From the NCBI RefSeq assembly GCF_963921235.1, contig NC_086097.1:38628001-38692000 (forward strand): DNA of 64,000 nt, given 5' to 3'. This document shows positions 22,229 through 24,631 of this stretch, piece by piece; positions within the stretch are counted from its first letter, which is position 1, and the number at the start of each line of letters is the position of its first letter. Source of the DNA: Mobula hypostoma (taxonomy: Eukaryota). The notes under the pieces were generated by a model. That model was not told the origin of the DNA and ran no database searches. It was given only the letters and a program-made list of their open reading frames with translations. The translations under genes and the position numbers were made by a program.

Positions 22229-24631
22229 CTACAGCTCGGAGCCCCTTGTCCCGTGCCCCGCCTCTCCTCCTTCCCGATCCTGCCGCAACTCAGACTGCCC
22301 ACAGCTAACCCTCCCCACTACACCTGACTCAGTGGGAGAAGGGCCAAAGGTCACTTCCTCAATCACGGGGAAGTTAGCGAAAGACAGCATGTACCACATG
22401 TGCAGCACATCATCCTTCGAATCCGTATCCTTCCTCATTCCCTCGATCGGTAGCTGCTGTTTAAGTTTCTCCAAACTGAAACATTTAGCCGAGGCTACCC
22501 CTTCACCCTCCTGCAGTTGAGACGTCAGCTTCTTCGGGGACTCCTTCAACTCTCGCCACAGCCTCAGCAGTTCCGACTCAGGGTTCCTGGCCATCTCAAT
22601 CTGGGACGCAGTTACCCCACCAGCTTCTTCCACCCTGACCTGAAAAGCAGCAGTTAAAAGATGTTCAGCCTCCGGTTGTTTCTTCCTGAGGACGTCTTCC
22701 AGGTCAACTTCCAGTTTTCCCACTTCATTTAAACTCGCGATAGTCATCTTCAGGTTCCTTTCAAGCATCCGCCTCCCTTTTCCGAGATCTGTCCTCCACT
22801 TCTTCACCTCTTCGGGAGTGTAGTCAAACTCCCCTCCCTGGGCTCTCGGTTTTCTGTTGACCTTAGTCAGAACACTTCCTTGATCTTCCCCAACTTGCAA
22901 GTCTTCCAATCTGTTTTGAATCGACGTCTTGAGTTTCTGCTGATCTCTTCGAAGGTGGGTCATTGTTTCTTCTTGCTGGATTAATTCATCAGTACATGAC
23001 CACAGTGTGGTGCAAATCCCCTCTCTTCCCTGTGTCTCATTCAGGTTGACGACCTGGGTTTCCATCCCCTGGTCCACCACCGTCTGTTCCAACACCAGGA
23101 AGTTCAACTGGTATGTCGGGTCATTTTTCTCACATTGCACCAAACTCCTCCGGCCAAAAACTCCTCCACATTTGACACTTCGCTTCGGTCGCCCGGGCTC
23201 AGCCACTCGCCTCACTTCATAGTCCCCACAGGCGAATCCAAGCTCTAGGTGGTCATCCACATACGCCAAAACTCCACACACCTTCACTTCCCCAATGGTC
23301 TTCCTCATGCCCCGCGAGAAGGATGCAGGGGCTCCGGATATGCCCTTGGGCATCTTTTCAGATCAGAAGAATTCTAGGAAATTAGTAACGGCTGTCTTCG
23401 GCTCAACAGCCGCACTCCTCGGGATCTGGCAACATCCACTCCTCAGATGCAGCACATTAAACAACGTCACATAATCCGCACACACGCTGCCTTCATTTTC
23501 CACGCTGCTAGGGTCCAGTTGCCGCGACCTCTCTCTCACTGAGGTGTCTTCAGCGGTCAACTCCCCTCCCTCGTGATAGTTTGGAGCACCTACTAAGAGG
23601 GTCTCACCCTCAGCTACTTTCCCCAAACCGTACCACCGCTGGGTCTCGTTTAAATTCGGTACTGGCTCAAGGCTGCTACACACGTCCTCGGAAGCAACTC
23701 GACACACTGGATGTCCAGAAAATGCCTCCATAACTTCCAGGGTCATTAACCAATTATCGTCTTCTGGATAACTACTGCCACTAGTACTCAAAGTCTCCGG
23801 TGCCCTTGCGGTTGTCAAGGATAAATGCTTCAGACACCGGTTTTAAAACGAACTGTACAACAACTTGATCTGTGCCCCGGGGTCGAGGATAGCTTTAGCA
23901 TCGCTTCCCTCTATCCATAGCGACACCCTGGGGCGTGGCCCCTCTAAGCCTGCAGGAATAGGGTCTTTTCCTTTCGGAAGTTCAGTGGTACATTGCTGGG
24001 AACGTGCTTCCCCAGAGAACACAAGCCGTTCCCCCCATTGGGCCTCCACTAAGTTTCCCGACAACTCTCTGATCAGCTGAACAACTGAAGGAGGGGCTGA
24101 TCCCCTGAAATGATCCCCCTGGCACTGCAAGCAATTTAGCCGCCCTCCTAGCCAGAGAAGACACACTGAAAACTTTCCCCCCTCTTTCAAATAACTGACA
24201 GCTGTCACTACGGTGTAAGTGAACCTGACAGCTCTAACACCGTCACCAGCCCGCCTACTCAAACTTTCAACCAATCCCTGTCGCTCTCCCTCAACCAAGC
24301 TCTGCCACTCATCTAACAACTGCGAGATCCGCTCCGCCCACGTCTCACACGCCTCCGCCCCTCTTGGGGTGGACACAATCCCAAACACCAGGCAGAGCCT
24401 GCCAGAGCTAGAACATTTATTCGCAGACCCTACCTCCAAATCAGACCACTCTTTCCTCTCTCTCCCAACCGCATGGACAGCCCCAAGTGCCACCTCCAAC
24501 TCATCAATGCTAGTCTGAACTCGAACAAAGACCTCACCCACCATGCATACAGCAATCACCAGCAAATAACCCACAGAGACACACATTACAGATTCAAACA
24601 GGGCACCCACACAGCATACCAGCAGGCTCAA
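22229..24631 (-). pseudogene. Chimeric gag-PR-RT-myosin rod-pol tail reading frame with two in-frame stops (23843-23845, 23363-23365)
   Basis: ORFs 23843-24631, 23363-23818 and 22229-23353 share one frame. Segments align to element B gag/pol and to the sarcomeric myosin heavy-chain rod. Confidence 0.8.
22442..23146 (-). pseudogene. Transduced sarcomeric myosin heavy-chain (MYH16-like) coiled-coil fragments
   Basis: LEDLQVGEDQGSVLTK ~ LDDLQAEEDKVNTLTK; KKWRTDLGKGRRMLERNLKMTIASLNE ~ KKxRxDLERAKRKLEGDLK / LKMTIDNLNE; RVEEAGGVTASQIEM ~ RLEEAGGATSAQIEM; AKCFSLEKLKQQL ~ AKCASLEKTKQRL. Confidence 0.85.

Follow-up and report, generated by a model that had tools for sequence, protein, structure and literature searches.

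The window analysed here, i.e., the whole stretch of 64,000 nucleotides from contig NC_086097.1 of the ray Mobula hypostoma, contains at positions 21246-25343 a 4.1-kb long terminal repeat (LTR) element, which encloses the long coding frame 24631-22229 addressed by the original prediction. This element is an aged and decayed member of a high-copy family of non-autonomous LTR retrotransposons of the Ty3/gypsy type, whose ancestor shed most of gag, pro and pol through deletions and gained an mRNA-derived myosin rod between a ribonuclease H (RNase H) remnant and the tail of the integrase (IN). We consider it reasonably probable that the family was organised as a first open reading frame (ORF1) encoding a Gag remnant, a heptamer for ribosomal slippage and a second frame (ORF2) in the -1 register, and that ORF2 was long selected to stay open and in frame in the transposing lineage. 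The amino acid sequence of ORF2 appears to have drifted almost freely while the frame stayed open. Positions refer to the window throughout, and the element and all of its parts lie on the minus strand.

In the window copy, the minus-strand translation of 24631-22229 comprises 801 codons, interrupted by a TAA after ...LLYSSF (23845-23843) and a TGA after ...NFLEFF (23365-23363) and closed by a TAG at 22231-22229. The original prediction had described three ORFs in a single frame split by TAA and TGA, which proved correct (the ORF coordinates quoted there include the stop codons), and its view of both codons as point mutations fits late changes, the TAA being found in one of 29 other copies and the TGA in none. 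These copies stem from a genome search with the 2403-nt frame as query (Q numbers are positions in this query, Q46 being the ATG at window 24586), which gave 2785 first-look candidates; 40 of these were scored, and all of them were full length with 93–96% identity. Since all scored copies are full length with the same deletions, the deletions predate the amplification of the family. The copy alignment consists of the window copy and the 29 others (n = 30), i.e., the top-scoring matches of a search whose ranking probably favours copies without insertions or deletions (indels) between Q598 and Q2376. The LTR pairs of the 30 copies are 93.4–98.2% identical (mean 95.9%), as expected for old insertions.

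Across this alignment, a layout with two ORFs emerges. ORF1 (~250 codons as an open frame) has its ATG at Q46 in 29/30 copies and ends at about Q687, which corresponds to about 213 codons from the ATG. ORF2 occupies the -1 frame relative to ORF1, where it stays open from Q400 to about Q2413 (about 670 codons); it overlaps ORF1 from Q400 to Q687 and comprises remnants of protease (PR), reverse transcriptase (RT) and RNase H, the myosin part and the IN tail; its columns are stop-free in five of the 30 copies, the others having one to six stops. A 12-nt deletion marks a subfamily (11/30 copies). A second subfamily of the same genome holds 102 more bases (34 codons) of myosin, in frame, and 1201 nt of one of its copies (L066) are fully open on DNA.

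Retroviruses and luteoviruses produce Gag-Pol by -1 frameshifting at X_XXY_YYZ heptamers, and GGGAAAC is a working heptamer in luteoviruses. The window element carries G_GGA_AAC in the Gag frame (24059-24053), inside the ORF overlap, and 22/30 copies have it. The same heptamer is found in the same frame in L061, an autonomous relative within the same genome that served as yardstick, where it precedes the gag stop by 16 nt and pol continues as an open -1 frame from this point, as well as in the same place and frame of element B (window 32956-40465, plus strand), a member of the same superfamily, at 34983-34989 just before its gag stop. Moreover, the -1 frame of the window element (..VGKLSGGPVGERLGVSG..) aligns with the pol frame of L061 (..VGKLRRSSVSERTGVSG..). 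Judged from sequence, the superfamily most likely makes Gag-Pol by -1 frameshifting, a signal that the defective family would have retained. As at the retroviral and luteoviral sites, the candidate heptamer of the ray element belongs to the Gag frame and is closely followed by the gag stop, with the downstream ORF in -1; unlike them, it is retained although its “pol” encodes no enzymes.

Another G-run within the ORF1/ORF2 overlap, at 24177-24182 (Q450-455), differs in length among copies by one to four bases and overlaps a G_GGA_AAG heptamer present in 26/30 of them. In element B, the gag stop occupies 35005-35007, and a TAA lies in the pol frame a few codons past the heptamer.

The origin of part of the frame from myosin, as claimed in the original prediction, was confirmed by matches in the PDB and to host exons. 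In the PDB search, three rod pieces corresponded to Myosin-4 residues ~979-1094, ~1139-1186 and ~1390-1427, with Myosin-7 also matching. Comparison with exons X2-X5 of the host sarcomeric myosin locus L065 revealed that the first piece spans X2 and X3 into X4 without introns, and that X2, X3, X4 and X5 are matched contiguously across the whole myosin block, their introns being absent. The rod was therefore captured from spliced mRNA. The donor could be resolved to its gene class (sarcomeric MYH), with no close donor gene among the myosins compared: over 159 codons, the myosin part shares 39.6% amino acid identity with a host sarcomeric myosin (nucleotide identity at the three codon positions 57, 67 and 40%), and its best identity to any full-length myosin is 25–36%. 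A Pfam search of the window ORFs did not recognise the myosin tail and gave just weak PNMA and RVT_1 matches.

Some further observations concern myosin sequences in this genome. Exon skipping was dismissed as a source of the myosin deletions, as the junctions lie off the host exon borders. The myosin locus compared first (L062, L063) is a non-muscle paralogue without a match, and the intronless myosin piece L064 (G000:C18:48745314-48746731) showed no relation to the window element, element B or L061 by blastn. The region G000:C68:15.31-15.89 Mb, which includes L065, contains seven matches of the large myosin-rod exon at a spacing of ~65–210 kb and seems to hold sarcomeric myosin heavy-chain genes in a tandem cluster. 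Besides L064, intronless myosin-rod fragments with stops are dispersed at places on C50, C184, C157, C21 and C12, and these fragments could represent processed pseudogenes or else cargo that other elements carry.

In intact copies of the family, the myosin part is stop-free despite its ~40% identity to the host gene. When host myosin coding sequence was drifted neutrally in simulations (2000 runs each, 268 codons) to 40, 50 or 60% amino acid identity, on average 11.3, 9.5 and 7.5 stops per 268 codons accumulated, and 0/2000 runs were stop-free at each of these levels. Moreover, the approximately eight junctions in ORF2, i.e., PR-RT, RT-RT, RT-RNase H, RNase H-myosin, three within myosin and myosin-tail, are all in frame, in line with the earlier remark that the junctions including the myosin deletions keep the frame. 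For comparison, ten of the 110 private indels of the 30-copy set, which served as neutral indel reference, are multiples of three.

A profile search extended the family beyond this genome: 15/15 matches fell in Myliobatiformes, namely Mobula birostris, M. hypostoma, Hypanus sabinus and Hemitrygon akajei. These relatives share the chimera of RT remnant, myosin and tail as well as oddities such as LRSGCCQ, and they differ in their deletions, all of which are in frame. The Hypanus protein P0130 (729 aa), for example, aligns with the ORF2 part of the window element over 478 residues at 59.4% identity, and none of the 11 gaps breaks the frame. Conservation is highest in the integrase tail RDTDSEDDD.D.WY.LPFAD.P..EEETPG.SPT, which was found in 30/31 autonomous-type loci and in every ray relative reaching it; in the window element it stands isolated like an island between myosin and a deletion of ~540 nt relative to element B. 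Taken together, the absence of stops despite the divergence, the in-frame junctions and the in-frame indels between lineages argue for selection on the openness of ORF2. What stands of the selection originally proposed is thus that ORF2 was likely kept open on the older stem lineage; it extends neither to a single frame of 800 codons nor to the recent family. As for the reason, the apparently almost unconstrained amino acids are more in keeping with a need for openness itself than with a conserved coiled-coil protein.

The element ORF makes up much or part of two Hypanus sabinus gene models, P0130 and P0132, which carry the names of TMEM192 and SDHAF3 isoforms and are either annotation chimeras or real read-through transcripts.

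The assignment to Ty3/gypsy is based on gag/pol homology and on the order PR-RT-RNase H-IN seen in L061, which contains a PNMA-type Gag (E 5.5e-37), two zf-CCHC, RVT_1, RT_RNaseH_2, Integrase_H2C2 and rve domains. The blocks of the window element are collinear with L061 but fragmentary, comprising one third of the capsid domain, the protease, two RT blocks, 30 codons of RNase H and the integrase tail. Its Gag remnant covers the first third of the PNMA-type capsid domain only (20.2 bits against Pfam PNMA, under the cut-off of 25; profile positions 3-63 of 161) and has lost the zinc knuckles, and the protease active-site motif has decayed to DPGA. The RT blocks align by tblastn with L061 3301-3516 (E 0.001) and 3706-4038 (E 7.8e-17), RVT_1 matches the window ORFs at E 0.12 only, and no integrase core was found in the window element. 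The element is therefore non-autonomous, given the weak RVT_1 match, the missing integrase core, the RNase H reduced to 30 codons and the degraded protease motif.

L061 itself shows some peculiarities. An in-frame TAG at 2110-2112 separates its capsid domain from the two zinc knuckles, with the same frame running on to the normal gag end; its PR and RT lie in different frames; and at 6480-7290, past the integrase tail, it has about ten tandem copies of a unit of ~14 residues (GEGVAEPPVLQPGL), in a region where several frames are open on either strand.

Element B represents an old Ty3/gypsy copy of the autonomous type whose frames are broken at several points. As a parent of the window element it was ruled out, since the DNA blocks are only 67–78% identical; it belongs to a related family. 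The contrast drawn earlier between the open frame and a frameshifted B carries no weight, B being just an old decayed copy of another family. Of the patchwork of short matches to B that had been listed, CSFYDQYLQH, FFQFERMP, HPVFQAAF, EGEALLV, FRERSRRLAP, YFDD and the DSKDD..WY..PFA tail were found in ORFs of B, and LRSGYYQIP was seen in L061 and not among the B ORFs listed. The pair EGETLLV/EGEALLV may match by chance; the stretch is covered by the collinear alignment to L061. The frame was further said to end with the pol tail, and the tail motif indeed occupies 22279-22423. The last ~9 codons and the stop are shifted out of the family frame by a private 7-nt deletion, all 29 other copies having seven more bases at 22256/22255 (six in one copy). 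The string NLNETQ, which occurs twice in the frame, was considered as a repeat and rejected as coincidence, no DNA repeat being found.

How could such a frame have been maintained? The LTR would drive transcription of the element, an autonomous partner would supply the proteins that copy it, and the RNA of the element could be translated into the Gag remnant. A -1 shift at G_GGA_AAC would then yield a Gag-linked chain running through the RT and myosin filler to the integrase-tail peptide. The reason we prefer for the open frame is that the RT and myosin part may act as a spacer for a polyprotein bearing the conserved IN-tail peptide, in which case stops and frameshifts in the filler would be purged in the transposing lineage and replacements tolerated. 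An alternative option could be translation-coupled RNA stability, which would explain the openness equally and the island-like retention of the tail less well. More tentatively, as a possibility we would not put high, ray Ty3/gypsy elements might need read-through of the pol frame in cis, so that only copies whose translation reaches the end of ORF2 get copied and any in-frame filler is tolerated. If true, an LTR retrotransposon would follow a rule of cis preference like the one known for LINE-1, seen here as a frame kept open across manta rays and stingrays without constraint on its sequence.

Several points weigh against long selection on ORF2 behind a frameshift signal. Purifying selection was not seen within the family, whose copies decay about neutrally. 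Variants of ORF2 common to at least three of the 30 copies have a ratio of nonsynonymous to synonymous changes (N:S) of 84:36, with 37/43/40 at the three codon positions, which does not differ from the 269:137 of singletons (Fisher odds ratio 1.19, p 0.51). Under a mutation spectrum taken from singletons of the LTRs and the 3'-untranslated region (3'-UTR), stop gains number 16 against 18.3 expected (p 0.72), and changes in total 405 against 427. The comparison of dN/dS (nonsynonymous against synonymous substitution rates) between copies, which had been proposed beforehand as a check, hence turned out at ~1 within the family, without depletion of stop gains, so that recent evolution looks neutral by the refuting criterion set there. 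The five copies with a stop-free ORF2 represent an upper bound, since the 30 copies are the top-scoring and probably the indel-poor ones. Some of the myosin deletions lie between similar heptad motifs, which could favour in-frame loss without selection; likewise, with a best identity of 25–36% to any myosin, part of the divergence could predate the capture. The proteins of the other species are mostly gene models and may be stitched around defects, DNA having been checked for L066 only. A role for a Gag-ORF2 fusion is hard to see, as the Gag remnant has no zinc knuckles and has lost the greater part of its capsid domain. Frameshifting is deduced from sequence only, and the hairpin predicted 5 nt past the heptamer in 5/5 sequences, at best a possible stimulatory structure, folds no better than shuffled sequences (z -0.54, +0.80 and +0.70) and has only two compensatory pairs. 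Finally, among public runs, none recorded as RNA carries the element sequence.

The private indels of the family require a separate remark. Only one of them falls in the 1521 nt of Q688-2208, whereas the preceding 706 nt hold 19 and the two LTRs together 80, at uniform substitution density. Selection against frameshifts was rejected as the cause, as this zone is the longest gap-free diagonal of the query, between its own two unusual indel states (Q597 and Q2376), and stop gains are not depleted; it is most likely an ascertainment effect of the genome-search ranking.

Among the other explanations, one holds that the protein sequence of ORF2 itself matters, e.g., as a coiled-coil oligomerisation module that competes for helper particles, and is under weak purifying selection. 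A block EEAGGVTASQIEM...SELLRLWREL...AKCFSLEK.KQQL with 18 invariant columns among 11 sequences would suit this idea, as would a charged-residue retention of 0.67 versus 0.57 ± 0.06 under neutral drift (a value reached by ~4% of simulations) and singletons slightly short of nonsynonymous changes relative to the mutation spectrum (267:138 observed versus 287.8:117.2 expected, p 0.025). However, variants at the subfamily level have no synonymous excess, and different lineages dropped different large parts of the rod, whose tail, as mentioned, escapes recognition by Pfam. Constraint on a coiled coil was not detectable in core retention or in proline and glycine content: the hydrophobic core of the host rod is retained at 0.69, no better than the 0.65 ± 0.08 of neutral drift with stops forbidden, and proline plus glycine were gained at the neutral rate (14 versus 13.0 ± 3.4). 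We therefore regard this explanation as unlikely.

The original prediction itself favoured a source element with one continuous frame of ~800 codons from Gag to the tail, with selection on this fused frame. The window copy does read in this way, P0130 of Hypanus runs in a single frame, and one sampled copy has a single open frame of 773 codons, which results from a different event, a 4-nt insertion in the G-run at Q450-455. The fusion in the window copy is due to one extra base in the G-run, which is absent in 24/29 other aligned copies (present in 6/30). A search for the junction pattern, which is not ordered by score, gave 206 exact matches versus 0 in the control, and among the 100 matches listed 88 have the short and 12 the long state, seven of the latter being directly fused and stop-free at the join and five having a TGA there. 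Against the fused frame as the family norm stands, besides this prevalence of the short state, that both autonomous relatives, L061 and B, share the short spacing and the extra base is therefore derived. In addition, the extra base occurs in several forms (AGGGG, GGGGG, GGGAG) and also in one copy with the 12-nt deletion, which suggests repeated slippage in the G-run, and copies having it are of similar age to the rest (LTR identity 0.960 versus 0.959). The fused frame of 800 codons is a derived minority state (~1 copy in 8), and the family-typical state is that with two ORFs. Selection on a fused source frame thus appears quite improbable. The chimera of ~790 residues would rather be the predicted product of frameshifting, put into one frame by a later slip of the G-run 18 nt past the heptamer.

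Selection might also be dispensed with altogether if the chimera was built shortly before the burst from coding pieces that were already open, the open frame being a relic. The neutral variation within the family agrees with this, and the same deletions in all scored copies mean that one founder suffices. Yet the probability of eight junctions all being in frame by chance is about (1/3)^8, the myosin part at ~40% identity to the host lies far beyond the 60% at which no simulation was stop-free any longer, and the chimera exists with different in-frame deletions in four ray species of two families. This leaves the absence of selection very improbable.

That the sequence is no mobile element but a host gene, i.e., a domesticated fusion of Gag and myosin, can be practically dismissed: predictors did name relatives as “uncharacterized protein”, “putative uncharacterized protein MYH16” or TMEM192 isoform, but the hundreds to thousands of dispersed copies, their LTRs and target duplications, their neutral decay and the stops in the window copy refute it at the window locus.

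With selection for an open ORF2 in the transposing lineage as the preferred account, the element can be set beside known systems. Acutely transforming retroviruses carry Gag-host fusion genes derived from spliced host mRNA within their LTRs and are helper-dependent. The ray element resembles them in that a host mRNA fragment replaces most of pol or env inside the LTRs, in frame with viral coding sequence, and in needing a helper. In contrast, its cargo is a structural myosin rod and not a growth regulator, and it is a germline element of the Ty3/gypsy type with high copy number that was kept across ray families while the cargo drifted to ~40% identity.

In maize, Bs1 is an LTR retrotransposon with transduced fragments of host genes. 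Plant LTR retrotransposons transducing host gene fragments are reportedly treated in a review (PMC13317346). The ray element shares with Bs1 and such plant elements that a non-autonomous LTR element contains host exons and keeps a chimeric ORF; it differs in the elasmobranch host, in the position of the cargo, which follows a retained frameshift signal in the pol frame, and in the evidence for openness over deep divergence. LTR retrotransposons with captured extra ORFs are also reported for bdelloid rotifers (PMC5408684). Both cases represent LTR elements with acquired coding sequence, the rotifer elements being autonomous with added ORFs, whereas the ray element lost RT and IN function and its cargo replaces them.

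Large retrotransposon derivatives (LARDs), miniature retrotransposons with terminal repeats (TRIMs) and BARE-2 are non-autonomous LTR elements which are non-coding or Gag-defective. Like these, the ray element has large internal deletions and would rely on an autonomous partner with related LTRs, putative primer-binding site (PBS) and polypurine tract (PPT); unlike LARDs and TRIMs, which have no long ORF, it keeps a frame of ~670 codons in a layout of the Gag/-1/Pol kind. A full-text literature search, covering sources available in part, did not find a myosin-carrying LTR element described in rays or sharks. Distinctive here is a high-copy non-autonomous LTR element of a vertebrate in which transduction of a host gene is combined with a retained Gag/-1/Pol layout and a filler ORF that is open across ray families.

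The usual view is that cis signals, i.e., LTRs, PBS, PPT and a packaging signal, are all that a defective LTR retrotransposon requires, and that its coding remnants will rot. The ray family suggests that the coding remnants of a defective element are not free to do so, as its pol-frame ORF appears to have stayed open over the divergence of manta rays and stingrays. If this constraint is real, it would point to a translation-dependent cis step in the life cycle or to a function of the integrase-tail peptide. Among vertebrates, the family is also a rare case in which a germline LTR retrotransposon took up part of a host mRNA and was then amplified to high copy. For genome annotation, it explains many “myosin-like” and “MYH16-like” proteins as well as chimeric isoforms of unrelated genes in rays.

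Positions of the parts of the element are compiled in the table. The two LTRs, direct repeats with TGTAAGG...GCTACA ends, are 93.6% identical over 705 columns including gaps and 95.7% over aligned bases. In contigs from four public runs, probably of DNA and uninformative on transcription, 21243 is joined to 25344, with 4100 bases left out and four letters at the joint that fit either side. These contigs are empty-site copies of the flanking repeat and confirm the bounds of the element.

Table. Parts of the LTR element in window coordinates.
Feature	Position	Strand	Remarks
Target-site duplication TGTA	25344..25347 (upstream copy); 21242-21245 (downstream copy)	-	read directly
5' LTR	24651..25343	-	693 nt, starts TGTAAGG, ends GCTACA
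Primer-binding-site-like sequence	24634..24650	-	putative; TGG start, adjoins 5' LTR
Gag remnant (ORF1)	24060..24586	-	from ATG at 24586 to slippery site; tblastn to L061 gag
G_GGA_AAC heptamer in Gag frame, candidate -1 frameshift site	24053..24059	-	
G-run with one extra base in the window copy	24031..24036	-	merges Gag and ORF2 frames
Protease remnant	23714..24058	-	tblastn L061 2376-2720, 44% identity, E 1.3e-18
In-frame TAA	23843..23845	-	shared with 1/29 other copies
RT remnants, two blocks, YVDD retained	23168..23701	-	internal in-frame deletions
In-frame TGA	23363..23365	-	private, 0/29 other copies
RNase H remnant, 30 codons	23069..23158	-	tblastn L061 4513-4602, 50% identity, E 0.001
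Sarcomeric myosin heavy-chain rod pieces, intronless	22424..23062	-	PDB search and host exons of L065
Integrase C-terminal tail motif DSKDD..WY..FA..P.IEE.T.GPSPT	22279..22423	-	blastn to B 38992-39136
Private 7-nt deletion site	22255..22256	-	last codons shifted in the window copy
3'-UTR	21947..22228	-	homologous with pre-LTR region of B; blastn window 22188-21940 vs B 39673-39924, 71%
Polypurine tract GGCGGGGAGAG	21947..21957	-	immediately precedes 3' LTR
3' LTR	21246..21946	-	701 nt

Regarding the surroundings, a SPATA7-family exon (Pfam HSD3) was found at 8596-9021 on the same minus strand as the element, which agrees with the location in sense to SPATA7 given by the original prediction. 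The host site of the element is another, far more abundant repeat, contig depth in the flanks (20800-21245 and 25344-25800) being several-fold above that of the element interior, and LINE (long interspersed element)-like RT fragments are present at 25454-25951.

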